From: Elusimicrobiota bacterium
Lineage (GTDB): Bacteria > CAYTYR01 > UBA6262
DNA length: 64,000 bases
Reading direction: 5' to 3'
Assembly: GCA_003153935.1 (NCBI GenBank)
Contig: PMCA01000027.1
Coordinates: forward strand, 9,405 to 73,404
The position numbers were made by a program, and so were the translations under genes. Numbering within the stretch: position 1 is the first letter of the stretch; every line of letters begins with the position of its first letter. This document shows positions 11,143 through 61,454 of this stretch, piece after piece. The notes below the pieces were generated by a model that searched no databases, was not told where the DNA came from, and saw only the letters and a program-made list of their open reading frames with translations.

Positions 11143-11223
11143 AGTTTTAAGTTTAAAGTGATAAGTTTTAAGTTATGGTATTTCGCATTAATTTATCACT
11201 TAACACTTACAACTTAACACTGT
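11143..11223. repeat. Heptamer-array palindromic intergenic element, copy 1
   Basis: Five direct heptamers AGTTTTA/AGTTTAA/AGTGATA/AGTTTTA/AGTTATG, an AT-rich spacer (tatttcgcattaatttat), then four inverted heptamers CACTTAA/CACTTAC/AACTTAA/CACTGTA. It abuts the recO RBS. Confidence 0.6.
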
Positions 11224-23491: not shown

Positions 23492-23574
23492 AGTTTTAAG
23501 TGTTAAGTGAAAAGTGTTAAGTTATGGTGATTTTTTACCACAACTTAAAACTTATAACTTATAACTCAAAACTG
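23492..23574. repeat. Heptamer-array palindromic intergenic element, copy 2
   Basis: Plus strand: AGTTTTA AGTGTTA AGTGAAA AGTGTTA AGTTATG, spacer gtgattttttaccac, then inverted units CAACTTA AAACTTA TAACTTA TAACTCA AAACTGC. It lies between the GT4 stop and the promoter above. Confidence 0.6.
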
Positions 23575-38684: not shown

Positions 38685-39615
38685 CAGTCCTGATCTTTCT
38701 CATTATTTCCAAGGCCACCTGCAAAGCGTCCCGGCCCTGTTCCCCGGTCACCTGCGGCGTACGGCCCTCGCTGACGCAAGTTACGAAATGCTGCAACTCC
38801 AGGCCCAACGGTTCCATTTTAGCCAGGCGCGGATAAAGAACCTTAATATCTTTCAAGCTGGTAACTTCAGGCTGTTTTTTCTGGTAAACTTTCAATCCCG
38901 GCTTGGCGTAATCCAGGGATAAATATGAATCCTGCTGGAAGATCCTGATCTTGCGGAATTTTTTCAGCGACACCCGGCTGGCGGAAATATTGGCCACGCA
39001 GCCGTTGGCGAATTTGATCCGGGCGTTAGCTATATCCTCGAATCCGCTCAGGACCTTGGCCCCGACCGCGTCAATGGAGACGATCTTATCCTGAACCAGG
39101 TACATGACGATGTCTATATCGTGTATCATCAGATCCAATACCACGCTGATATGAGATACCCGCGGGTCGTAGGGACCGAGACGGTTGGCTTCAATGAACT
39201 TCGGATTCTTGGTATATTTCTGCGCTTCCAGGACCGCGGGATTAAAGCGTTCCACATGGCCCACCTGCAGTATCAGGTTTTTCTCCTGCGCCAGCCGCAC
39301 CAGCTCCTCGGCCTCTTCCAGCGCCGGGGTAATAGGTTTCTCGATCAGGCAATGGACCCCGTAACCAATAAAATCTTTGGCTACCTGGTAATGCAGAGGC
39401 GTCGGCACGGCGATGCTAACTGCTTCCACCTGGCGCAACAGGTCGCGATAATCAGTATGGGCCGCGGTATTATACTGCCGGGCGAATTTCCTGGCCTGCG
39501 CTTCATTGACGTCGCAGACGCCCACCAGTTCCACGCCAGGCAACCCCGCCAGTATCCGGCAATGGTGCACACCCAGGTGACCGATCCCGATCACTCCCAT
39601 TTTCACCTTGCTCAT
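38677..39615 (-). CDS. Gfo/Idh/MocA-family NAD(P)-dependent oxidoreductase (possible UDP-GlcNAc 3-dehydrogenase GnnA-like)
   Basis: 312 aa; Rossmann motif MGVIGIGHLG; embedded between lpxI and lpxB with overlapping stop/start codons. Confidence 0.6.
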   Translation of the reverse strand: MSKVKMGVIGIGHLGVHHCRILAGLPGVELVGVCDVNEAQARKFARQYNTAAHTDYRDLLRQVEAVSIAVPTPLHYQVAKDFIGYGVHCLIEKPITPALEEAEELVRLAQEKNLILQVGHVERFNPAVLEAQKYTKNPKFIEANRLGPYDPRVSHISVVLDLMIHDIDIVMYLVQDKIVSIDAVGAKVLSGFEDIANARIKFANGCVANISASRVSLKKFRKIRIFQQDSYLSLDYAKPGLKVYQKKQPEVTSLKDIKVLYPRLAKMEPLGLELQHFVTCVSEGRTPQVTGEQGRDALQVALEIMRKIRTDG

Positions 39616-40433
39616 ATCTGCTCCTTAACGGCGGCCAGACATATCTTATAATGATCGGCCAGCGCCACTACTTTCTCCAGATCCAGGATAAGCGTTTCCC
39701 CGGCGCTAAAAGCCAGTACGCCGGCCTTAGCCTGGTGTAAAGTTTCGATCGTTCTTTCACCAATAATCGGCACGTCAAAACGCAGGTCCTGGTGCGGTTT
39801 GGAAACTTTGACTACCACCACGTTCTCTTTACCGATCAGCCCTCCGCGCAGGATGGCCTGGTCCGTGCCTTCCATTGCTTCGACGGCGAGCACAGCTTTA
39901 TCTTTCACCACCACGGTCTGGCCGATATCCAGGCCGGCTATGCCTTTGGCCAGGCGCAAGCCAAAATTAATATCCTGCCTTTCTTCTTTCGTGGGTTTTT
40001 GTTTAGTCAGTATCCCTTCCCGGGGGATGAATTTTTCCAGGAATATGGTCGAGTCTACCAGCCGGATGCCTTCCTGGTTAAGCTCCTGGGCCACTCCGCC
40101 CAGGATCGTGTCAGCCTTTTTATCCGGCAAACGTTTAAGCAGGCCCATGGCGCGCAGGTCCAGCTTCAACAAATCAAAAAGGCGGAAATGTTTTACCTGT
40201 CCTGCCATCACCGCCCGTTTTACTTCCTGTTTTTTGAAAACAGAGATCAATTTATTAAGTTGTCCCAGGGAGACCCAGGTGAAGCTGTCAACCAGATTTT
40301 CCAATTCTGGCTTGGTTTCGCCCTCCAGCGCCACGGCTATGACCCGCAGGTTTTGTTCCCTGGCGGCCCGGGCGAAATGCAGGGGATAATCACCGTTCCC
40401 CGCTATGAGACCGATCTTGTTATCTTCTGGCAT
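39612..40433 (-). CDS. lpxI: UDP-2,3-diacylglucosamine hydrolase LpxI (DUF1009)
   Basis: 273 aa; IGLIAGNGDYPL N-terminus and overall DUF1009 architecture; it sits between lpxA and lpxB, and no lpxH is present in the cluster. Confidence 0.8.
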   Translation of the reverse strand: MPEDNKIGLIAGNGDYPLHFARAAREQNLRVIAVALEGETKPELENLVDSFTWVSLGQLNKLISVFKKQEVKRAVMAGQVKHFRLFDLLKLDLRAMGLLKRLPDKKADTILGGVAQELNQEGIRLVDSTIFLEKFIPREGILTKQKPTKEERQDINFGLRLAKGIAGLDIGQTVVVKDKAVLAVEAMEGTDQAILRGGLIGKENVVVVKVSKPHQDLRFDVPIIGERTIETLHQAKAGVLAFSAGETLILDLEKVVALADHYKICLAAVKEQI

Positions 40434-41243: not shown

Positions 41244-42587
41244 TTATCTGTCTACCAGGGTAAACATGAACTCCGCTTCCGCGACCAATTTAGAATTAAC
41301 GAAAGCCTTGCCGCACACTATCCCGGTTTTGCTTTTAACTCTCAATAATTCCGCTTCGAAGATTATCGTATCCCCAGGTACTACTGTCTGGCGGAATTTT
41401 ACTTTATCGATGGTCATAAAATAGGCCAATTTGCCGGCGTTCTCGCTCTTTTTAAGCAACAGCACGCCCGCCACTTGCGCCATGGATTCTATCAACAAAA
41501 CGCCCGGCATGACCGGATGACCAGGGAAATGCCCGCGGAAGAAATCCTCGTTAATGGTGACGTTTTTCAAACCGATCGCTTTTTTATCTTCTTCGATCTT
41601 GAGGATCTTGTCCACCAGCAGGAACGGCGGCCGGTGCGGCAGGACCTTTTGCACTTCGTTCGTGTCCATGAGCGGATTATTCAGGTCTAGGTCCGCGAAA
41701 CGATCGGCCTTGCCGGTCGTCCCGGGGGCAGCCTGAGGAGACGCTGCGGATTTGGCTTCTTTATTTTTCAATTGTTTAAGTTTCTTCACAAAACTGACGT
41801 TAGACGGATGTCCGCACCTGACCGCGATGATATGAGCTTTTAACGGCTGTCCCAGGAGACAAAAATCGCCGATCAGGTCCAGGATCTTATGCCGCACGAA
41901 CTCATCGGCAAAGCGCAGTTCAGTATGAATACCCTTCTCGCCGATAATGACCGCATTGTTCAAATTGCCGCCCTTGGCCAGTCCCTGTTTCTTCAGGGTT
42001 TCTATCTCATAATCAAAGCAAAAAGTCCGCGAAGGCGCGATCTCTTTGACGTAAGTTTCCGGATTAACAGTGAAAGTTGCATATTGTGATTTCAGGAAGG
42101 GATGATCATAGTTTATGGTCAGGCTGACTTTGAATTCCGCGGCCGGCACGGCGATAATGCTGGTTTGGCCATCGACAAAATAAAGCGGTTCCTTCAGTTC
42201 GAAATAATTCCGCGGTGCGTCCTGCTCCACCAGGCCGGCTTTCTGCAGGGTCTGGATAAAGGGCATGGCGCTGCCGTCCCCGACGGGCGGTTCATTGGCG
42301 TTGATCTCGATCATGGCGTTGTCCACGCCCAGGCCGTAGAGAGCCGATAATATGTGCTCTACCGTATGGACCTTGACCTCACCGAGGCCGATGTTGGTCC
42401 CGCGCTTGACATCAATGACATTATTGACATCGGCCGCGAAAAGATTGTCAGTTTTCTGGTCGATGCGCATGAACTTGATGCCGCTATTGGCCGGCGCCGG
42501 CTTAAAAGTTATGCTGGTGATACTGCCGGTATGCAGGCCGACACCCGAATAGGAAATCGGCTCTTTTAATGTTTTTTGTTTTTCCAT
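41244..42587 (-). CDS. lpxC: Bifunctional UDP-3-O-acyl-GlcNAc deacetylase / 3-hydroxyacyl-ACP dehydratase (LpxC-FabZ fusion)
   Basis: 447 aa. N-terminal LpxC: LHTGSITSITFKPA, HTVEHILSAL. C-terminal FabZ hot-dog domain: FFRGHFPGHPVMPGVLLIESMAQVAG. Confidence 0.88.
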   Translation of the reverse strand: MEKQKTLKEPISYSGVGLHTGSITSITFKPAPANSGIKFMRIDQKTDNLFAADVNNVIDVKRGTNIGLGEVKVHTVEHILSALYGLGVDNAMIEINANEPPVGDGSAMPFIQTLQKAGLVEQDAPRNYFELKEPLYFVDGQTSIIAVPAAEFKVSLTINYDHPFLKSQYATFTVNPETYVKEIAPSRTFCFDYEIETLKKQGLAKGGNLNNAVIIGEKGIHTELRFADEFVRHKILDLIGDFCLLGQPLKAHIIAVRCGHPSNVSFVKKLKQLKNKEAKSAASPQAAPGTTGKADRFADLDLNNPLMDTNEVQKVLPHRPPFLLVDKILKIEEDKKAIGLKNVTINEDFFRGHFPGHPVMPGVLLIESMAQVAGVLLLKKSENAGKLAYFMTIDKVKFRQTVVPGDTIIFEAELLRVKSKTGIVCGKAFVNSKLVAEAEFMFTLVDR

Positions 42588-42610
42588 TTCTCCCCCTAAA
42601 ATCAGACCAC

Positions 42611-42672
42611 GGTTAGCGGATAACGGATGACGGCTAAATTAACCGTCGTCTGTCATCTGTCGTCCGTCATCC
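42611..42672. repeat. Heptamer-array palindromic element with a different unit sequence (GGATGAC/GGACGAC), copy 5
   Basis: Minus strand: GGATGAC GGACGAC AGATGAC AGACGAC GG, spacer TTAATTTAG, then inverted CCGTCATCC GTTATCC GCTAACC. It lies between the lpxD stop and the lpxC-fabZ RBS (GGGGGAG). Confidence 0.5.
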
Positions 42673-42674
42673 AA

Positions 42675-43703
42675 TTATTTACTGTTTTCTAATTCCTTTA
42701 TTTTTTTCTCCAGTTCCGCTACTTTGACCCGCAGTTCCGGCAACCGGCGCAATTCCGCATTTTGTCTCCTGGCCAGTTGATGGGGCTGGGCCGGATAGCC
42801 GCTGACACATTCACCGGGCGTAACATCTTTGGTCACCCCGGCCTGGGCGGCGACAATGCTGCCTTTGCCGATGGTAATATGCCCTACTATGCCCGCCTGC
42901 CCGGCAATGGTAACATTCTCTTCGATCACCGTGCTGCCGGATATACCGGCCTGCGCGACGATCAAGCAATTGGTCCCGACCTGCACATTATGGGCGATCT
43001 GCACTAGGTTATCTATTTTGGTACCGCTGCCGATGCTCGTGTTGCCCAGGGTGCCGCGGGCCACGCAAACATTGGCGCCGATCTCCACATCGTCCCCGAT
43101 CACCACTGACCCGACCTGCGGGATCTTGAAATGCCCGCCGGACTGCGGCACAAACCCAAAGCCATCGCTGCCGATGACCGCTCCGGAATGGATGATCACC
43201 CGGGCACCGATGGAGATCTTTTCACGGATGGACACATTGGCATAGATCAAACCATCCGGACCTATGTTTGTTTCCCTGCCGATATATACTCCAGGGTAAA
43301 TAACGCAATTATTACCGATGCTGGTTCCCGCCTCTACCACTACCGCCGGGCCGATAGCCACATTCGCGCCTAATTTGGCCTGGGGACTGATAACCGCCGT
43401 GGCATTAATCCCTGCCGGGATAACCTGCTCCGGCGGATTGAATAGGGCCAGGATCCTGGCGAAAGCCAGATAAGGATTGTCGCAGATGATCGCCGCTTTA
43501 CCCGCGGTCGGAAAATCCGGCGAAACGATGATAGCGCCGGCCTGGCTTTTTTCCAGTTCTTTGGCATAGCGCGGATTAGACAGAAAGGTGATCTCCGCCG
43601 GGGTGGCTTCCTTAATGCCGGCTACTCCTTTGATGACCATTTGCGGATCTCCCATTATCTTTCCGCTTACTAAACTAGCCAGTTCCGCCAAGGTTTTTTC
43701 CAT
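42675..43703 (-). CDS. lpxD: UDP-3-O-acylglucosamine N-acyltransferase
   Basis: 342 aa; N-terminal LpxD-specific domain plus hexapeptide repeats; located after skp. Confidence 0.9.
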
Positions 43704-43704
43704 A

Positions 43705-44334
43705 TTATTCCTCTTTGATCTTTAACTGATAAGGCGAAGTCACCGGAGCAGATGAAGGCACGATCACCGGCTTGGTCTGGCTATATCCGGTCGTGTTATC
43801 CGGTAAGGACGGTGAGACAATGCCCTTAGCCTGGTCTTCCAGCCTCTTGATCACGTCATCCGTAATATTCCAGGAGTCCGCGCCGTAAATTACGTTATTC
43901 TTATCCAGGATCAGGGTATAGCTCTTTTCCTTGCCTATAGCCTGCACTGCGGCGTATACCTTGGCCAGGATTCCCTGGGTCAGGTCGGATTCCTTCTTGG
44001 TCAGGTCGCTTTCGGACTCCTCGGTGAACTTTTGCAGTTCCTGGGCCTTGCGGTCAATATCCGCCAGTTTATTTTTCTTGTCATCCGGGGTGAGAGTCGC
44101 CTGCTGTGCTTCCAGCACCTGCCGTAAGTTTTTCACTTCATCGCTCATCTTCTGGATCGCGTCCTGTTTGGACTTGATCTCTTTTTCCAGGGCTAACTTA
44201 GCTTTTTTGGTTTCCGTGTACTGATCAAATACCGTGGCGATATCCACGTAGCCTATTTTTAATCCCGCCGCCATAAGCGTCACGGCCGTGGTTAATATCA
44301 CACTGAGTATTATCGCTGCTATAAACTTTTTCAC
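43705..44334 (-). CDS. skp: Periplasmic chaperone Skp (OmpH)
   Basis: 209 aa; signal peptide followed by a long coiled-coil-rich sequence; the bamA-skp-lpxD order is canonical. GTG start with RBS AAGGAGG. Confidence 0.8.
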
Positions 44335-44342
44335 TTATGCCT

Positions 44343-44440
44343 CCTTCAAAATAGTTGCGAGTTTCGAATTCCGCGTTTCGAGTTATGGAATATATATTTA
44401 TACATTAACTCGCAACTCGTAACCCGCTAACTCGAAGCTG
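44343..44440. repeat. Heptamer-array palindromic intergenic element, copy 3
   Basis: Plus strand: AGTTGCG AGTTTCG AATTCCG CGTTTCG AGTTATG, spacer gaatatatatttataca, then inverted TTAACTCG CAACTCG TAACCCG CTAACTCG. It lies between the bamA stop and the skp RBS. Coordinates are approximate. Confidence 0.6.
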
Positions 44441-44444
44441 TCTC

Positions 44445-46937
44445 TTAGAATACCGGGCCGATACTAAAGAAGAACTGGGAAAGACTTTCGCCCGGCTTGT
44501 GGTTCAAGCCATAACCCCAATCCAGGCGGATTGGGAACATCGGTATGGTAAAACGCAGACCAAAACCCACATCCTGCTTTAAAGCATAGTCGTAATGCCC
44601 CAGCTTGGTGGTAGGCCAGGTATTGCCGGCGTCATAGAAGAACGCTCCCTTTAAGATGGTCTGCCTTTTTTCCCTGATTATCGGGAAGCTGTATTCCAGG
44701 TTCAGCAGGGTGACGAACTTGCCGCCGCTGACCTCACCCACCTCCCCGTTGTAATTATAGCCGCGCAGGGTTTCGGCGCCGCCCAGGAAGAATCTTTCGT
44801 AGACCGGAACCTCGACAGAACTGCCGTAGGTATTCACTACCCCGAACATGCCATGCAAGCCCCAGACAAATTTCCAAAAGCTGGGGAAGAACCAGGCTGT
44901 TTCCAGGGTTAATTTCTGGAAATTATTGTCCCCCCGCAGCCAACCGCCGGCAAGCTTATAATTCAAGATCTGGTTGGAACCGGTAGTAGCGTCAAAAACA
45001 TTATCCCGGGTATCGCGGGACAAGTTGAGGGAGATAGAGCTGGTCTTGACCAGGCCCCGATCAGTATCATTAGCGATTTCATCGCTGATATTTTTGAATG
45101 GCAACCCAAAATAAGGGCTGTTCGTATCCCCTTCAGTTTTTAACCTTTCGGTAAGGTTGCTAATCCTGATATCCTCATAAGAATAGCCGATACCGCCGTT
45201 AAATATCTCTTTGAACCGTTTGCCTAAAGTAAAACCGACACCGCGGGTGGTCTCGTCATACAGGTCATTCTCTACCGAGGTATCAGCTGCCGGCACGGTC
45301 GCAATCGTCGCGTTGGTATTCGGATCGACATAAACGGTGCTGGTTTTATTCCAGTAGAAGGTCCTATCCCGTTTCATATTGAAAACATTGACCCCCAGTG
45401 AAAAATAATGCTGCATGAACCAGGGATCGAAAAAGCCGATCTGGTAATTCTGTCGCAGGGCGCCGATCTCGTACGCCAGGTTGATGCGCTGGCCGCGGCC
45501 CAGCAGGTTATTGATCTGTATCTGCATATTGCCTACTAATTTATCGACGCTGCTGTAGCCCATACCCACGCTCAGGACATTGACCTGGGATTTCTCCTTG
45601 ACATTAAATATCAGGTCCAGTTGTTCCTCGGGTTTTTCCGCGTTGGGCTTGGTTTCCAGTCCCACATCTTCAAAGAATCCCAGGTTATACAATTGCTCCT
45701 GGCTGCGGCGCACCCTGGTCATGCTCAAGGGGTCGCCCTGGTGCAAAAGTATTTCCCGCTGGATCACATAATCTTTGGTTATTTCATTGCCGGCTATCTC
45801 TATGTTCCCGACATAAGCCATGGGTCCTTCGGTAATATGGTAATTTATGTCCATGGTTTGCAGATCGTCATGGGTGGTAACCTGGGGATCGATCCGGGCG
45901 AACACATATCCTTTATCGGCATAGACCGCCTGAATGTTGGCCGTGGCCTGGTTAAAATCATCCTGGTTGTAGAATCCGTTCAATTTGACTGGCATATCTT
46001 TCCAGAATTCCTTTTCCTGGATCACGGTATTGCCGCTGAATTTTATGGAAGCGATCCGGTACCTAAGCCCTTCCTGGATCGTATATTTTATGGTCAACTT
46101 AGAACGGTCCGCATTGAATATAACCTCCGGACCGCTCAGTTTGAAATTGTAAAATCCGTGGTCCTTATAAAATTTTTCCAGTATATCCGGGTCCTTGTCC
46201 AAAGTCTCTTCTTTATATAATTTGCTTTTCCTGGTTTTTAAGACTTTCAGTATCTTTTTGGTCGGGTAAAAGGAATTACCGCTGACCTGTACTTCATCAA
46301 TTCTTATCTTATTACCTTCGGTGATGAAAAACGTCAATACCTGTTTATTATCCCCGGTGTCCGTGGTATATGATTCCACCTTGGCGTCGGCATAGCCTTT
46401 GTCTTTATAATAGGTCAGGATCTTAGTCTTGGATTCGTCCAGTTTAGACTGGTCCAGAGCTTCCTTTTCCTTAAGCGTGACCTCATCCTTGATATTGGAA
46501 GCTTTTATTAGCTTATTACCTTTGATATCTATCTGCTTGATCACCGGTTTTTCCACTACGATAAAAGTAACCTTAACCCCGCCGTCTACGTCCGTCACAT
46601 CCACATTAATGGAGGAGAACAGGTTCAGGTCGAATAGCTTACGCAGGTCATCATCAACAGTGGCCTGCTTATAATCCTGTCCCTTGCGTATCTTGGTCAC
46701 GTCCCATACTTTGCGCAATGGCTCATTCTTCAGGCCGCTGACATCAACTAGTATAATTTTCTTGCCTTCCGGCGATTCGCCCGCGGAACTGCTACCCGGA
46801 CCGGCCAGGCTTCCCATTGGCGTCTCCGGTGGTGATAAGGACAGATCGGCTGCTCGTACCGGCCCTATTCCCAGCAAAAATAAACTGATTAAAACCAGTA
46901 TAAATTTTAGCGGCTTCTTTATTCTATTATTGGACAA
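44445..46937 (-). CDS. bamA: Outer membrane protein assembly factor BamA
   Basis: 830 aa; signal peptide, POTRA repeats, Omp85 barrel ending ...FFFSIGPVF; TTG start preceded by GAGGAGG. Confidence 0.88.
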   Translation of the reverse strand: MSNNRIKKPLKFILVLISLFLLGIGPVRAADLSLSPPETPMGSLAGPGSSSAGESPEGKKIILVDVSGLKNEPLRKVWDVTKIRKGQDYKQATVDDDLRKLFDLNLFSSINVDVTDVDGGVKVTFIVVEKPVIKQIDIKGNKLIKASNIKDEVTLKEKEALDQSKLDESKTKILTYYKDKGYADAKVESYTTDTGDNKQVLTFFITEGNKIRIDEVQVSGNSFYPTKKILKVLKTRKSKLYKEETLDKDPDILEKFYKDHGFYNFKLSGPEVIFNADRSKLTIKYTIQEGLRYRIASIKFSGNTVIQEKEFWKDMPVKLNGFYNQDDFNQATANIQAVYADKGYVFARIDPQVTTHDDLQTMDINYHITEGPMAYVGNIEIAGNEITKDYVIQREILLHQGDPLSMTRVRRSQEQLYNLGFFEDVGLETKPNAEKPEEQLDLIFNVKEKSQVNVLSVGMGYSSVDKLVGNMQIQINNLLGRGQRINLAYEIGALRQNYQIGFFDPWFMQHYFSLGVNVFNMKRDRTFYWNKTSTVYVDPNTNATIATVPAADTSVENDLYDETTRGVGFTLGKRFKEIFNGGIGYSYEDIRISNLTERLKTEGDTNSPYFGLPFKNISDEIANDTDRGLVKTSSISLNLSRDTRDNVFDATTGSNQILNYKLAGGWLRGDNNFQKLTLETAWFFPSFWKFVWGLHGMFGVVNTYGSSVEVPVYERFFLGGAETLRGYNYNGEVGEVSGGKFVTLLNLEYSFPIIREKRQTILKGAFFYDAGNTWPTTKLGHYDYALKQDVGFGLRFTIPMFPIRLDWGYGLNHKPGESLSQFFFSIGPVF

Positions 46938-51880: not shown

Positions 51881-51905
51881 GAGGCCCCGCGACAGCGGGG
51901 CGCCT
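51881..51905 (-). terminator. Rho-independent terminator downstream of clpC
   Basis: Minus strand reads GGCGCCCCGCugucGCGGGGCC followed by UCUAUUUU. Confidence 0.5.
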
Positions 51906-56036: not shown

Positions 56037-57276
56037 ATCTTATCGCCTCTACAGGATTTAGCCGTGATGCCTTGTATGACGGATAGACTGTCGCCAGAAA
56101 ACTGATCGCCAGCGCCGCGATAGCTATTATCAGGCCATCGCTTAATTGCATTTTTACCGGCAGGTAACTCAAATAATACACGTCACCGGGTAATTTAATT
56201 ATCTTATAGGCCGCCTGCAGGTAGCACAAAATGGAACCGATAATGGTTCCCGCCACCAGGCCGATCGCGCCGATGATCAAACCTTCGTAGATAAATATGT
56301 TCATGATACTGCGGCGGGTGGCGCCAATGGCCCGCAGGATACCGATGGAACGGGTCTTCTGGATCGTAATTATCATCAAAGTGCCGACGATGTTGAAACA
56401 GGCCACCAGCACGATCAGGGTCAGGATAACGAACATGGTAATTTTTTCCAGTTTCAGTGCGCTGAACAGGTTACGGTTCATCTGTACCCAGCTGCGCACC
56501 CAGAACGACGGCCCGAGCGCGGTCTGTAATTTGCCGGCGATCGCTTCGGCCTGCAGGGAATCCTTGGTTTTGACCTCTATTCCGCTAACCTTATTCTTCA
56601 CGCCGAAAATATTCTGGGCGGTTTCCAGCGGTATATAGGCCAGGTTGCTGTCGTATTCGAAATGTCCCGAGTCAAAAATCCCCGCCACCTTGAATTTCCG
56701 CATCAGCGGGATTATGCCTACGCCGCTGGACACGGACTGGGAAGAGATCAACAGCAGGTCTTCATTCAGCCCTACCCCCAGCGTGCGCGCCAGGTCTCGG
56801 CCTATCACTATGCCTTCCACCACCGGACCCTTGGCGTTTTTCTTGATTTTCCTGGGGTTCAGGCCGTCCAGATTGCCGGAGACCAGGTAGACCGAAATGT
56901 CGGTCACCTTTGTTAACTGTGCCGGTAACACCCCTTTTATAAAAACTCCGGTCCCGTTCTGTTGCGATTTCAAAATGGCCTGCCCGTAAACCACGGGGCT
57001 GGTGCCGGTAACTTCCTTGTTTTCTTCGATCTTTTTGGCCACCTGCTGATAATTGCCGAAACCGCTGGACTCCTGGCTGGTCACGACCAGATGGGCGCTC
57101 ATGCCCAGGATCTTGGCGCGCAGGTCATTCTGCATGCCATTCATCACCGACAGCGTGATAATAAGAGCAGCTACGCCTACCGCCACCCCCGCTATCGAGA
57201 TCAGGCTTATTAGTGACAGGAAGGTTTGTCCCTTCCTGAATTTCAAGTATCTCAGGGCCACGCCCAGTTCAAACAT
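56029..57276 (-). CDS. lolC: Lipoprotein-releasing system permease LolC/LolE (FtsX-like)
   Basis: 415 aa; 4-TM MacB/FtsX topology with a large periplasmic loop; LRYLKFRKGQTFLSLISLISIAGVAVGVAAL N-terminus. Confidence 0.75.
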   Translation of the reverse strand: MFELGVALRYLKFRKGQTFLSLISLISIAGVAVGVAALIITLSVMNGMQNDLRAKILGMSAHLVVTSQESSGFGNYQQVAKKIEENKEVTGTSPVVYGQAILKSQQNGTGVFIKGVLPAQLTKVTDISVYLVSGNLDGLNPRKIKKNAKGPVVEGIVIGRDLARTLGVGLNEDLLLISSQSVSSGVGIIPLMRKFKVAGIFDSGHFEYDSNLAYIPLETAQNIFGVKNKVSGIEVKTKDSLQAEAIAGKLQTALGPSFWVRSWVQMNRNLFSALKLEKITMFVILTLIVLVACFNIVGTLMIITIQKTRSIGILRAIGATRRSIMNIFIYEGLIIGAIGLVAGTIIGSILCYLQAAYKIIKLPGDVYYLSYLPVKMQLSDGLIIAIAALAISFLATVYPSYKASRLNPVEAIRYE

Positions 57277-58750
57277 TTTCTGGCCTCATCTGCGGGAACA
57301 GGATCACGTCGCGGATAGAAGGTGAATTGGTCAGGATAATGACTAAACGGTCGATACCGATGCCCAACCCGCCGGTAGGCGGCATGCCATACTCCAGCGC
57401 GCGGATAAAATCTTCATCCATAAGCTGGGCTTCCTCATCGCCCTTTTCCCGTTCCTTAAGTTGCTGCTCCATCCGTTTTCTCTGCTCGATCGGATCGTTC
57501 AGCTCGGAATAGGCGTTAGCCAGTTCCTGCCCGCCGATAAATAATTCAAAGCGTTCCACCATTTCCGGGTTACTCTTGGAATTCTTAGCCAACGGCGACA
57601 GCTCCACCGGGTAATCGCAAATGAAAGTCGGCTGTATCAGTTTCTTTTCCACGCATTGTTCAAAGATGCAGCTGATTATCTTGTTATGGCTGGTGTTAGG
57701 GTCAAATTCCACCTGGAGATCGCTGGCGATCTTTTTTGTTTCCTCCAGGGTTTTAGGCACGGAGAAATCCACTTCGGCGTATTCCTTGATAGCGCCGATG
57801 AGGGTCAACCTTTTCCAGTCCCCGTCAAATTGGATAATATTACCGTTGTATTCCGTTTCCAGCTTGCCCAGGCATTCCTTAACCACCAGGGTGATCATCT
57901 CCCGGCATAGTTCCAGTACCTGGTTATAATCGGCATAGGCCTGGTATAATTCTATCATGGTAAATTCCGGGTTATGCCTAGTGGAAATACCCTCGTTGCG
58001 GAAATTACGGTTGACCTCGTACACTCTCTCCAATCCGCCCACGATCAAACGCTTTAAGTACAGTTCCGGCGCGATGCGCAGGAACAGGTCTATATCCAGG
58101 GCGTTATGATGCGTGCAGAACGGCTTGGCCGCCGCGCCGCCGGGGATGGATTGCATCATCGGCGTTTCCACTTCCAGGAAATTACGGCTGTCTAAATATT
58201 CCCTCATGGTCTTAATAACTTTGGACCGCAGGCGGAAAATACCCGCCACTTCGTCATTGGCGATCAGGTCAACATAACGCTGACGGTAACGGGTTTCGAT
58301 ATCGGTCAAACCGTGCCATTTTTCCGGCAGCGGCCGCAGGGCTTTGCTTAAGAGCGTTACCTGGTCCACATGTAAGGTTATCTCCCCGGTCCTGGTGCAG
58401 AATACTGAACCCTTCACGCCGATAATATCACCCATGTCCAGGGTCTTGAAAACCTCGTATTCCTGTTCGCCGATGACATCTTTCTTAACATATATCTGGA
58501 TCCGCCCGGCGGCGTCCTTAATATGGGCGAAACAGGCCTTGCCCATCAGGCGCATGGTCATGATCCTGCCGGCCACTACCAGGCTGCAGGTTTTATCCTC
58601 GGACCCCGGCGTCAGGTGTCCGTACTGCTTGCGGATATCCGCGCTGGAGGCAGTGACGGTAAACTTATTGGGATAAGGGTCTATCCCACTGGTTTTCAGG
58701 TCCTCTAATTTTTTACGGCGTTGCTGTAAAAGTTCATTAAGCTCTTCCAC
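57269..58750 (-). CDS. lysS: Lysine--tRNA ligase (class II)
   Basis: 493 aa; N-terminal OB fold and class II catalytic core (FLEVETPMMQ..., ...GGLGIGIDRLVIILT); GTG start with SD AGGAG. Confidence 0.92.
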   Translation of the reverse strand: MEELNELLQQRRKKLEDLKTSGIDPYPNKFTVTASSADIRKQYGHLTPGSEDKTCSLVVAGRIMTMRLMGKACFAHIKDAAGRIQIYVKKDVIGEQEYEVFKTLDMGDIIGVKGSVFCTRTGEITLHVDQVTLLSKALRPLPEKWHGLTDIETRYRQRYVDLIANDEVAGIFRLRSKVIKTMREYLDSRNFLEVETPMMQSIPGGAAAKPFCTHHNALDIDLFLRIAPELYLKRLIVGGLERVYEVNRNFRNEGISTRHNPEFTMIELYQAYADYNQVLELCREMITLVVKECLGKLETEYNGNIIQFDGDWKRLTLIGAIKEYAEVDFSVPKTLEETKKIASDLQVEFDPNTSHNKIISCIFEQCVEKKLIQPTFICDYPVELSPLAKNSKSNPEMVERFELFIGGQELANAYSELNDPIEQRKRMEQQLKEREKGDEEAQLMDEDFIRALEYGMPPTGGLGIGIDRLVIILTNSPSIRDVILFPQMRPENV

Positions 58751-58796: not shown

Positions 58797-58826
58797 ATTA
58801 TAGTGCATCTGTCCGACGGATGTCAA
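58797..58826 (-). promoter_or_regulatory. Consensus sigma70 promoter TTGACA-N18-TATAAT upstream of lysS
   Basis: Minus strand reads TTGACAtccgtcggacagatgcacTATAAT, about 45 nt upstream of the lysS GTG start. Confidence 0.6.
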
Positions 58827-58845: not shown

Positions 58846-59637
58846 TTACCGGGGGGAGTTGAATCGGATGTTGATCATCTTGGGCGTGGTGGTGGCCCCC
58901 GCTTCCACGGGTTCCGGCTCAAGACCCAAATACGGCGCCGGCTGTGATATCCTGCCTACCCGGCTCAGGCCATTGATAAATTGCCTATAATGTTCTTCTT
59001 GCATCTGCAGGAATAGTTCCTGGCTATCGTTCTGCCGGAAGTATTTTTCCCGGTCAGCTACCTGCATTTCGATGGTATAAGGAGAAGCTGGAACGACTTG
59101 TGAAACCGCTGTGGCGCCGCAGGAGTCCTTAGCTGGCGCCAGGCTGAAACTATCGGCGCTTTCCTGGATCGCTCCTCCAGCCAGAGCCGGTGCGGGAGCT
59201 TCTTTCTTTTTCTCTGCCCCGCCTTTAGCCATAGATGTTTTTTCTAAAGCCCTCACCGAATTATTAACCACCGGCGCCAGCAGAGGCGCTATTTCCGTGC
59301 GGGTTGGGCTCGTTATTTTAGTGGCGTATTTGTTAATGGATACCGCGATCAGCAGTACCGCCATGGCAATAATTGCCGCTGGGACCGGCTTCCAGCTAAA
59401 GATCCCCCAAACGGGTTTACTGGCTAGTTTTCTCTCGATACCTTCCCAAATACCGGCGGGCGGTTCTACCTCTTCGAGTTCTCCCACCATCTTAATGGTC
59501 TGGCGGAGAGCGGCCAAGTCCTGCCGGCATTGGGCGCAGCCTGGCAGATGTTTATCTACCCGCTTCTTTTCTTCCGGAGAGCATATTCCATCTATATAAA
59601 AGGAAAGCAATTCGGTTACATGCTTATTGTTATCCAT
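58846..59637 (-). CDS. Zinc-finger (zf-HC2) membrane anti-sigma factor
   Basis: 263 aa; N-terminal H-x3-C-x2-C motif (HLPGCAQCRQDL); a single TM (VPAAIIAMAVLLIAVSI); overlaps the ECF sigma gene by 8 nt. Confidence 0.7.
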   Translation of the reverse strand: MDNNKHVTELLSFYIDGICSPEEKKRVDKHLPGCAQCRQDLAALRQTIKMVGELEEVEPPAGIWEGIERKLASKPVWGIFSWKPVPAAIIAMAVLLIAVSINKYATKITSPTRTEIAPLLAPVVNNSVRALEKTSMAKGGAEKKKEAPAPALAGGAIQESADSFSLAPAKDSCGATAVSQVVPASPYTIEMQVADREKYFRQNDSQELFLQMQEEHYRQFINGLSRVGRISQPAPYLGLEPEPVEAGATTTPKMINIRFNSPR

Positions 59638-60220
59638 TTTGAATCACTCCCTTCAGTTTATCTTTTAATTCCAGCCGCGCCCGGGCCAGTCGGCTTTTCA
59701 CCGTGCCCAAATTGCATCCGGCTGCCGCGGCGATCTCGTCATAAGAGAACCCTTGTATATCGCGCAGGATTATCACTTCCCGATGTTCGGGGTTTAAAGT
59801 GGCAATAGCTTTCTGCACTTTGTCCCTTATCTCGCCCGCCTCCGCCTGCTTGGAGGGATCGGGACAACTTTTATCCTGTACTTCCACGGTCATTTCATCA
59901 TCTTCCGTTTCTATGGTCCGGTCCAAGGAATCGATATAGGGTTGGGAACGCCAACTGCGCAGCTTATTCTTGCAGGTATTGCAAGCGATGTAATAAAGCC
60001 AGGTGGAAAAACTGGCTTCTTCCCTGAAGTCTTTTATGCCTTTGAAAACCCGCACAAAAATATCCTGGGTCATATCTTTAGCCTCTTCCTGGTCGTTTAA
60101 GAAGCGGAAGCAGAGATTAAAGACCTTCTTCTGGTATTTAGCCACTAATTGGGAAAAGGCAACCTGGTCGCCCTTCTTGGTTAGTTCCACTAACCTGGGA
60201 TCTGCCGGATCTACTACCAA
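59630..60220 (-). CDS. rpoE: ECF-subfamily RNA polymerase sigma-70 factor (RpoE-like)
   Basis: 196 aa; region 2 (VFNLCFRFLNDQEEAKDMTQDIFVRVFK) and region 4 (REVIILRDIQGFSYDEIAAAAGCNLGTVKSRL). Confidence 0.85.
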   Translation of the reverse strand: MVVDPADPRLVELTKKGDQVAFSQLVAKYQKKVFNLCFRFLNDQEEAKDMTQDIFVRVFKGIKDFREEASFSTWLYYIACNTCKNKLRSWRSQPYIDSLDRTIETEDDEMTVEVQDKSCPDPSKQAEAGEIRDKVQKAIATLNPEHREVIILRDIQGFSYDEIAAAAGCNLGTVKSRLARARLELKDKLKGVIQNG

Positions 60221-60233
60221 GACTCTCCCCTTG

Positions 60234-60262
60234 TATAGACAACTTTAGTCATAAAAAGTTCC
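60234..60262 (-). promoter_or_regulatory. RpoE-type ECF promoter GGAACTT-N16-TCTATA (likely autoregulatory)
   Basis: Minus strand reads GGGAACTTtttatgactaaagttgTCTATAcaagggg, about 15-45 nt upstream of the sigma factor start. Confidence 0.6.
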
Positions 60263-60271
60263 CTTAAAAAC

Positions 60272-60349
60272 AGTTACGAGTTTCGGGTTCCGAGTTTCGG
60301 GTTTTTGAATATTTAATTTATACCTTAACTCGTAACGCGTAACTCGCTA
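60272..60349. repeat. Heptamer-array palindromic intergenic element, copy 4
   Basis: Plus strand: AGTTACG AGTTTCG GGTTCCG AGTTTCG GGTTTTT, spacer gaatatttaatttatacc, then inverted TTAACTCG TAACGCG TAACTCG CTAACTT. Its right arm overlaps the prfB stop codon. Confidence 0.6.
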
Positions 60350-61454
60350 ACTTCTTTTATTAACTTCCTTATCCAGATATGCTTCCATGAACTTGTCCAA
60401 CTCACCGTCCATCACCGCCTGCACATTGCCTATTTCCACACCAGTACGATGGTCCTTGACCAGGGTATAGGGACAGAATACATATGACCGGATCTGGCTG
60501 CCCCAGGCAATAGCGCCCTTATCGTCATAATGCTTCTCGGCTTTTTGCCGTTTCTTTTCCTGGTCCAGCTCGAACAGCCTGGCCTTGAGCAGGTTCATGG
60601 CCGTGGCCCGGTTCTTGATCTGCGAACGTTCTTTTTGGCTCTGTACGACTGTACCTGTTGGTAAATGCGTAATGCGGATAGCCGATTCAGTTTTATTTAT
60701 GTGCTGGCCGCCATGGCCGCTGGCCCGGTAGGTATCGATGCGCAGGTCGCTTTCGTTTATCTCGATCTTGACTTCTTCGCTGATCTCGGGAATAACGTCG
60801 CAGGAGGCAAATGTGGTGTGGCGTCTCTTGTTAGCGTCAAACGGGCTGATGCGGACCAGGCGATGCACGCCGATCTCCGACTTCAAATAGCCGTAGGCGT
60901 ATTCGCCCTGCACCAGGAAAGTAACACTTTTAACGCCGGCTTCTTCTCCGGCCAGGATATCGATGATCTCGGTCTGGTAGCCCTTGCGCTCGGCCCAGCG
61001 CGTGTACATACGCAGCAGCATCTCCACCCAATCGCAGGCTTCGGTCCCGCCCGCGCCAGAGTGCAGGTTGACGATAGCGTTATGACGGTCGAATTCCCCG
61101 CTTAATTTGGCCCGGAATAACCGGCTCTTAAGCTCGTTCTCCAGCCTGGTCAGGTCTGTATCCGCCTGCCGGAGGAAACCATCGTCATTTTCCGCCTGTC
61201 CCAGCTCTCCCATATCCTGTATATTCTTGAATTCCGCCGCCAGGGTATCGCCGTCGCGCACCGCAGTTTTCAACTGGTTAAGTTTCTGCATGAGCTTCTG
61301 CGCGCCCTGCTGGTCGTTCCAGAAACCCGCCGCGCCGGTCTGGCTCTCGATCTCCGCTATTTCCCGGCGCTTGTTATCCAGATCAAAGGAACCCCCGATA
61401 TTTTACCAGCAGTTCCTGGACTTGTCCCATTTTTTCGGTCAAAGGATTAGGCAT
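60347..61454 (-). CDS. prfB: Peptide chain release factor 2, expressed through a programmed +1 ribosomal frameshift
   Basis: Frame 0: ATG at 61454 gives MPNPLTEKMGQVQELLVKYRGFL then UGA. Frame +1 continues LDLDNKRREIAEIESQTGAAGFWNDQQGAQKLMQKLNQ... into the 314-aa ORF (60347..61291), which carries the SPF and GGQ domains. Confidence 0.85.
61383..61392 (-). other. prfB +1 frameshift site (internal SD-like GGGGG, then CUU UGA U)
   Basis: Minus strand reads CGGGGGUUCCUUUGAUCUG; the in-frame stop UGA sits in a slippery CUU U context preceded by GGGGG. Confidence 0.75.

Follow-up and report, generated by a model that had tools for sequence, protein, structure and literature searches.

The stretch of DNA analysed here, 64,000 nucleotides in length and hereafter called the window, harbours an ECF sigma factor gene followed by an anti-sigma factor gene, and the site upstream of the pair is most likely (with a probability of about 0.8, judging from sequence comparisons) the autoregulatory promoter of this operon. 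The first-pass annotation had proposed that a sigmaE-type promoter drives the two genes, and the comparative evidence bears this out: the site is suitably placed, its blocks and their spacing are kept in all ten orthologs, and the sigma factor retains DNA-reading residues. The locus comprises the following features.

60256..60262, minus strand: -35 element GGAACTT (in its extended form GGGAACTTT, 60255-60263), with GGAAC invariant in 11/11 loci.
60240..60255, minus strand: 16-nt spacer TTTATGACTAAAGTTG, whose sequence is unconserved among orthologs.
60234..60241, minus strand: -10 element TGTCTATA, with the core GTC (60240-60238) invariant in 11/11 loci.
60228..60229, minus strand: predicted transcription start (G), from E. 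coli sigmaE geometry.
60223..60232, minus strand: Shine-Dalgarno region AAGGGGAGAG, with AAGG(G/T/A)GAG kept in all loci.
59630..60220, minus strand: ECF (group IV) sigma gene, 196 aa, with a TTG start kept in 11 loci.
58846..59637, minus strand: anti-sigma gene, 263 aa, encoding a zf-HC2 N-terminal domain, one TM segment and an extracytoplasmic C-terminal domain.

On the minus strand, the region reads ...CTGTTTTTAAG-GGAACTT-TTTATGACTAAAGTTG-TCTATA-CAAGGGGAGAGTC-TTG..., with GGAACTT at 60262-60256 and TCTATA at 60239-60234, as the first-pass annotation had placed them. The motif GGAACTT-N16-TCTATA (60262..60234, minus strand) occurs as a single exact copy within the 64-kb window, where base composition predicts about 0.0017 (~0.002) such copies. 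It begins 42 nt before the TTG of the ECF sigma gene, and the interval between TCTAT and this TTG is 14 nt. The -35 element equals the E. coli sigmaE -35 motif GGAACTTTT (PMC1312014), and the layout of the site is GGAACTTTT, 16 nt and TCTAT (inside TTGTCTATA). The model of Rhodius et al. for E. coli sigmaE has GGAACTTTT at -35, a strongly preferred 16-nt spacer, (T/C)GGTCAAAA at -10 and a discriminator of 5/6 nt (PMC1312014). The site also agrees with the ECF02 target promoter, GGAACTT-N16-(G)TCAAA. A nearly perfect match to the sigmaE consensus had been claimed. This stands for GGAACTT, for the 16-nt spacing and for the sigmaE-read core GTC, all of which are exact, but not for the pentamer, which is TCTAT and not TCnnA; it matches E. 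coli TCAAA at 3/5 positions and rpoE-type TCTAA at 4/5. This pentamer was the sole exception, the remaining descriptive claims on the locus being all correct.

A position weight matrix of the two blocks was trained on nine non-redundant orthologous sites. It gives the site 28 bits, a circular score as the matrix was trained on the same sites; the best score in 30 shuffled windows was 19.3, and the second-best match within the window, on the plus strand and intragenic, reaches 14.7 bits. Since the high scores of the orthologous sites are circular in the same way, the informative part is the absence of other matches. The relaxed pattern GGAAC-N16-19-TCTNA was discarded, as it misses the site itself (its -10 being TCTAT) and its 3 matches are at chance level. 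A search of the prfB-sigma gap for a sigma-70-like promoter found none, and an Rfam search of the window returned no matches.

Ten orthologous loci of uncultured relatives (L001 and L095-L103), with sigma protein identities of 58-81%, were compared, which makes 11 loci including the window. In a protein search, about 20 sigma orthologs formed a tight group at 58-100% identity, the next matches being at 51% or less. With the sigma alignment as query, metagenome contigs yielded distant homologs only, at no more than 43% identity, and genome contigs yielded one close relative (L001), the others being Bacteroidota paralogs. The order secA-lnt-prfB-sigma-antisigma-lysS-lolCD is kept in every locus long enough to show it.

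At these loci, GGAAC(T/C)T followed after a gap of 15-16 nt by GTC is kept in 10 of 10 orthologs. Positions 6-7 of the -35 block are TT in 10 of the 11 loci and CT in L098, and the bases after the GTC core are T/A-rich, with TCTATA, TCTTAA, TCTCAA, TCAATA and TCAAAT among the 11 loci. The C of GTC lies 17-18 nt ahead of the invariant TTG start throughout (11/11). GGAAC, GTC, the Shine-Dalgarno sequence AAGG(G/T/A)GAG and TTG are invariant or almost so, and information content is about zero in the middle 12-13 nt of the spacer and in all DNA upstream of the -35 element. The combination of conserved blocks and a diverged spacer that characterises sigmaE-type ECF promoters was found in 11/11 loci; two kept blocks at fixed spacing around such a spacer are what a two-block promoter classically leaves behind. 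The stop codon of prfB precedes the -35 block by 6 nt in L095, and in L097 its TAG overlaps that block (TAGGAAC). With prfB ending this close to the -35 block in these two loci, the conserved blocks are self-contained and no upstream element is needed.

Related motifs are also present upstream of the genes of distant sigma homologs (36-43% identity) from Calditrichaceae MAGs and metagenome contigs, at about 3900-3970 in L007/L008 and about 2920-2960 in L082/L084. They read TGTAACTTT-N12-TAATCTAAA and TGAAACAAT-N12-TTGTCTTAC and are of the AAC...GTCT or TCTAA type. From these sequences, promoters of the AAC / (G)TCT type may be used by a wider ECF clade. As for the host, LysS identity is 73-83% inside the small clade and at most 61% to all others, across mixed phyla. 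The lineage is deep-branching and uncultured, and it has an outer membrane.

The sigma protein has the size (196 aa, against about 170-220 aa in the family) and the regions (2 and 4 only) of the ECF family, with Pfam matches to Sigma70_r2 (65 bits), Sigma70_r4_2 (61 bits) and Sigma70_ECF (38 bits) and a TIGR02937 sigma70-ECF score of 130 bits against a cut-off of 43. An alternative GTG start at 60190 (JGI gene call for a 100%-identical protein, 186 aa) was rejected: most orthologs have GTT, GTC or GTA at this codon, and the upstream TTG, the Shine-Dalgarno sequence and the intervening residues V3, D4, D7 and L10 are conserved. Among solved structures, AlgU of P. aeruginosa (6in7, E 1e-32) comes closest, then E. 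coli sigmaE (1or7 and 6jbq; E 2e-31) and, after these, SigW of B. subtilis. In the sigmaE4/-35 structure, R176 reads G-35, while Ser172 correlates with G-34 and Arg or Lys at position 171 with C-31 (PMC1540707). Alignment to RpoE places R180 at the position of R176, S176 at that of S172 and K175 at that of R171; F175 is replaced by Ala in the window sigma factor and by Ser in L001. At the -10 element of sigmaE promoters, the T and C of GTC enter sigma2 pockets lined by F64 and W73, and N80 forms the wedge (PMC6648896). All three residues are kept (F65, W74 and N81), the specificity loop is equal in length to that of RpoE, and the -10 residues are invariant between the window sigma factor and L001. 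RpoE-type promoter reading, which fits the residues, the motif and the spacing, thus appears well supported.

The RpoE label of the first-pass annotation is justified for the type of promoter and its recognition, but not for family membership, as the protein scores 151.4 bits with the RpoE equivalog model TIGR02939, whose cut-off is 236.15, and its anti-sigma factor is RsiW-like. The context of ECF02 genes is an RseA-type anti-sigma with RseB/RseC (PMC7826278); here, the downstream protein has zf-HC2 only and the next gene is lysS. Because TIGR02939 stays below its cut-off and the anti-sigma factor is zf-HC2/RsiW-like, not RseA, the system is not of the E. coli RpoE type. By these scores and its gene context, the protein is an ECF sigma factor but not a member of RpoE/ECF02. 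SigW is its second-best NCBIfam match (140 bits), and both SigW models remain below their cut-offs (NF007223, 139.9 versus 209; TIGR02948, 120 versus 243), which sets the protein apart from B. subtilis sigmaW as well.

The likeness to E. coli RpoE-RseA lies in the promoter (GGAACTT, about 16 nt, then GTC and A/T-rich bases) with an identical predicted geometry from -35 to +1, in the alignment of the sigma factors over their full length (E 2e-31) with S172, R176, F64, W73 and N80 kept, in a single-pass membrane anti-sigma gene after the sigma gene and in a diderm host. Unlike in that system, the anti-sigma factor is a zf-HC2 protein (zinc-finger ASD), rseB and rseC are absent here, F175 is Ala, the predicted leader is only 8-9 nt long, the start codon is TTG, and no second motif lies near bamA, skp or lpxD. 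AlgU of P. aeruginosa, whose solved structure is the closest match, has promoters of the GAACTT-N16/17-TCtgA type, and the algU operon is autoregulated. AlgU is paired with MucA, which is an RseA-family anti-sigma factor unlike the one found here, and mucB/C/D are absent from the locus. As for B. subtilis RsiW, it resembles the window anti-sigma factor in its N-terminal domain, in the H-x3-C-x2-C motif, in its single TM segment and in having an extracytoplasmic C-terminal part, but the C-terminal sensor domain is unrelated here and lineage-specific. RsiW is released by regulated intramembrane proteolysis. The promoter of its partner SigW is TGAAAC-N16-CGTA, in contrast with the GGAAC...GTC of the window.

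That the sigma gene overlaps by 8 nt the gene of a zf-HC2 anti-sigma factor with a single TM segment, as first described, is upheld by the ORF coordinates (the overlap being ATGGATAA), by Pfam (zf-HC2 alone, 40 bits) and by the one hydrophobic segment of the protein, residues 83-102. The protein carries the zinc-binding anti-sigma (ZAS / class I ASD) motif H30-x3-C34-x2-C37 and is predicted to bind zinc; H6, C19, H30, C34 and C37 are invariant in nine anti-sigma orthologs. RsiW is its sole solved relative (5wuq_C, E 5e-5). The anti-sigma gene lies downstream of the sigma gene in 9/9 orthologous loci that extend that far, the contig of L095 ending first. After the TM segment come a variable linker and a conserved C-terminal domain of roughly 80-100 aa that matches no Pfam family. 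In the window, this domain spans approximately residues 185-263 (58846-59330, minus strand) and contains PY.IEMEV ... LIRIKFN; all eight orthologs have a 16-residue stretch of it that the window protein is missing.

Autoregulation is common among ECF sigma factors (PMC7826278), and by analogy positive autoregulation would be the standard inference for this locus. RNA polymerase with this ECF sigma factor would bind GGAACTT (-35) via sigma region 4, region 2 would melt the DNA at GTC (-10), and transcription would start at about 60229/60228. The transcript would span the sigma gene, with its TTG, and the anti-sigma gene, the translation of which is probably coupled through the 8-nt overlap. In the resting state, the membrane-anchored zinc-finger anti-sigma factor would sequester the sigma factor. 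An extracytoplasmic signal would lead to inactivation or degradation of the anti-sigma factor, with release presumably by regulated proteolysis as in RsiW, and the freed sigma factor would amplify its own synthesis from its promoter. Use of the site by this sigma factor and not by a paralog is our inference, and so are the start point, the signal and the way in which the anti-sigma factor is released. The arrangement is a well-known one and the locus an ordinary example of it; textbook ECF logic is confirmed, not changed.

The start was predicted from the 5/6-nt discriminator after TCAAA (PMC1312014) and from the position of C at -9 (PMC6648896). By this analogy with E. coli sigmaE it would fall 5-6 nt after TCTATA, near the 6-8 nt given in the first-pass annotation. 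The predicted leader would be 8-9 nt long (GGGAGAGUC) with the Shine-Dalgarno GGAG at its extreme 5' end, and only GGAGAG of the Shine-Dalgarno region would be carried by the sigma-dependent transcript. Such a leader would be unusual for a well-translated bacterial mRNA. The tight packing of promoter and TTG is kept in 11/11 loci, and leaders are longer in the distant homologs that carry related motifs. Promoter, ribosome-binding site and TTG might thus form one rigid 42-nt module, with a nearly leaderless sigma-dependent mRNA that is translated differently from the full-leader transcript reading through from prfB, an idea that we consider unlikely. If true, the differing translation of the two transcript forms could set the sigma:anti-sigma ratio and damp the positive feedback.

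Possibly, a paralogous ECF sigma factor of equal specificity is encoded elsewhere in the genome. The site would then be a real ECF-type promoter used by that other factor, and the regulation a cascade or cross-regulation instead of autoregulation. We regard this as rather improbable since each ortholog of this sigma gene has the motif at a constant distance, even though AAC at -35 and GTC or CGT at -10 are common to many ECF groups. The window sigma factor does not keep F175 of RpoE, which would be compatible with another user of the site, but its own recognition residues suit the motif. Our analysis of the genome was confined to the 64-kb window, which also leaves room for a second factor; among the window ORFs scanned (all but a few of those beyond position ~11.2 kb) we saw no further ECF sigma gene.

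Alternatively, the blocks might not form a promoter and might instead belong to a translation-initiation region or to an RNA element in transcripts that read through from prfB, or be conserved by chance. The -10 block directly adjoins the conserved Shine-Dalgarno sequence, and some of the conservation near -10 may reflect this neighbouring ribosome-binding site; GGAAC, however, lies 25-30 nt upstream of it, and the two blocks are separated by a spacer of fixed length and variable sequence. With just 42-56 nt and no terminator between prfB and the sigma gene, four orthologs probably co-transcribe the two. Against an RNA element on such a transcript, RNAalifold over the region found no conserved structure (-0.16 kcal/mol, zero compensatory pairs), and an explanation by RNA structure was therefore rejected. 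Chance, for its part, would have to produce an exact copy of a promoter consensus that was defined independently, of which about 0.002 copies are expected. We hold all of these non-promoter explanations to be very improbable, and an autoregulatory promoter remains our preferred reading of the site.

All sizeable ORFs of the window are on the minus strand. The gene order is secA, lnt, prfB, ECF sigma, anti-sigma, lysS, lolC/E, lolD, class IV aminotransferase and ClpB-type AAA+ ATPase, and it continues with tamB, bamA, skp, lpxD, lpxC-fabZ, lpxA, lpxI, an oxidoreductase gene, lpxB, msbA, DUF374, waaA and heptosyltransferase genes. The sigma/anti-sigma pair (58846-60346) sits between prfB (60347-61453) and lysS (57269-58750), as it does in all loci long enough to show it; prfB and lysS form one operon in E. 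coli. The prfB gene has, within 61380-61453 (minus strand), a short ORF0 that begins at ATG 61453 and shares 7 nt with the end of lnt, followed by the classic programmed +1 frameshift site GGGGG TTC CTT TGA T. Further along, lpxC and fabZ are fused in a single ORF of 447 aa with LpxC and FabA-like domains (41244-42587, minus strand), and the cluster uses LpxI (39612-40433, minus strand) instead of LpxH. Three features bear on the limits of the transcription units.

60265..60359, minus strand: long imperfect hairpin of tandem 7-nt repeats AACTCGN with a U-run at its end (dG -38.2, z -3.15).
58797..58826, minus strand: sigma-70 promoter of lysS, TTGACA-18-TATAAT (12/12 consensus), directly after the anti-sigma stop.
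51884-51901, minus strand: strong terminator-like hairpin GCCCCGC-TGTC-GCGGGGC, with 7 G-C pairs and a T-rich tail, between clpB and tamB.

The hairpin at 60265-60359 starts in the last prfB codons and extends downstream to about 8 nt before the -35 box, in line with the annotated copy of a heptamer element immediately upstream of -35. It represents one copy of a dispersed element and no part of the promoter, and it probably terminates or attenuates prfB transcription. It is missing in L095, L097, L099 and L103, all of which still carry the promoter, and the spacers of L001, L096, L098 and L100 have analogous hairpins with other repeat units. The window itself has five such intergenic hairpins, at 11143-11221, 23492-23573, 42609-42671, 44351-44434 and 60265-60359. 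Each arm consists of about four tandem 7-nt repeats, with period and copy number constant across the five sites and repeat units that vary by site (AGTTTTA/TTAACAC, AGTGTTA/AACTTAA, ACGGATA/GTCATCT and AACTCGN). The bamA-skp and prfB-sigma copies are clearly homologous, including their AT-rich loop, and analogues occupy the three further gaps.

At the other end of the operon, the perfect sigma-70 promoter of lysS shows that canonical promoters are in use in this organism, and it marks the downstream limit of the sigma/anti-sigma unit. We searched for a terminator-like hairpin after the anti-sigma gene and found none; read-through of induced transcription into lysS-lolCD-ilvE-clpB is therefore possible, although we hold this to be weaker than the short-leader reading.

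The first-pass annotation had also pointed to the bamA-skp-lpxD cluster nearby. These genes (bamA, 44445-46937; skp, 43705-44334; lpxD, 42675-43703) do lie on the same strand, 13-17 kb downstream of the promoter. The envelope-stress regulon that it predicted, taken to include these genes, is not supported: neither the window nor 112 kb of orthologous sequence has a second motif, and the genes are separated from the sigma block by a terminator-like hairpin. In a matrix scan of the minus-strand intergenic gaps of the window, none reached 8 bits besides the sigma gap. Orthologous loci totalling 112 kb, among them the DNA upstream of clpB, tamB and bamA, yielded only the sigma promoters and one chance-level match inside tamB, so that across both sets of sequences no further site hints at a regulon.

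E. coli sigmaE controls bamA, skp and lpxD (PMC1312014), and the pair found here is embedded in a co-directional envelope cluster (secA, lnt, lolCD, tamB, bamA, skp, lpxD, lpxC-fabZ, lpxA, lpxI, lpxB, msbA and waaA) whose synteny is conserved in relatives. An E. coli-like envelope-stress regulon under this sigma factor, with these three genes as direct targets, is nonetheless unlikely in view of the scans, and the hairpin after clpB (51884-51901) and the repeat hairpin between bamA and skp oppose simple read-through from the sigma promoter. The former hairpin divides an envelope cluster that is otherwise unbroken and co-directional. Direct control of bamA-skp-lpxD by the sigma factor thus finds no support, but it is still conceivable, since the promoters of a regulon may be weaker than an autoregulatory promoter.

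For a deep-branching and uncultured diderm lineage, our analysis provides a confident assignment of a promoter and of a sigma/anti-sigma pair. The locus pairs sigmaE-like recognition (GGAAC / GTC) with an RsiW-like zinc anti-sigma factor outside Proteobacteria, and its promoter could serve as the seed of a search for the regulon.
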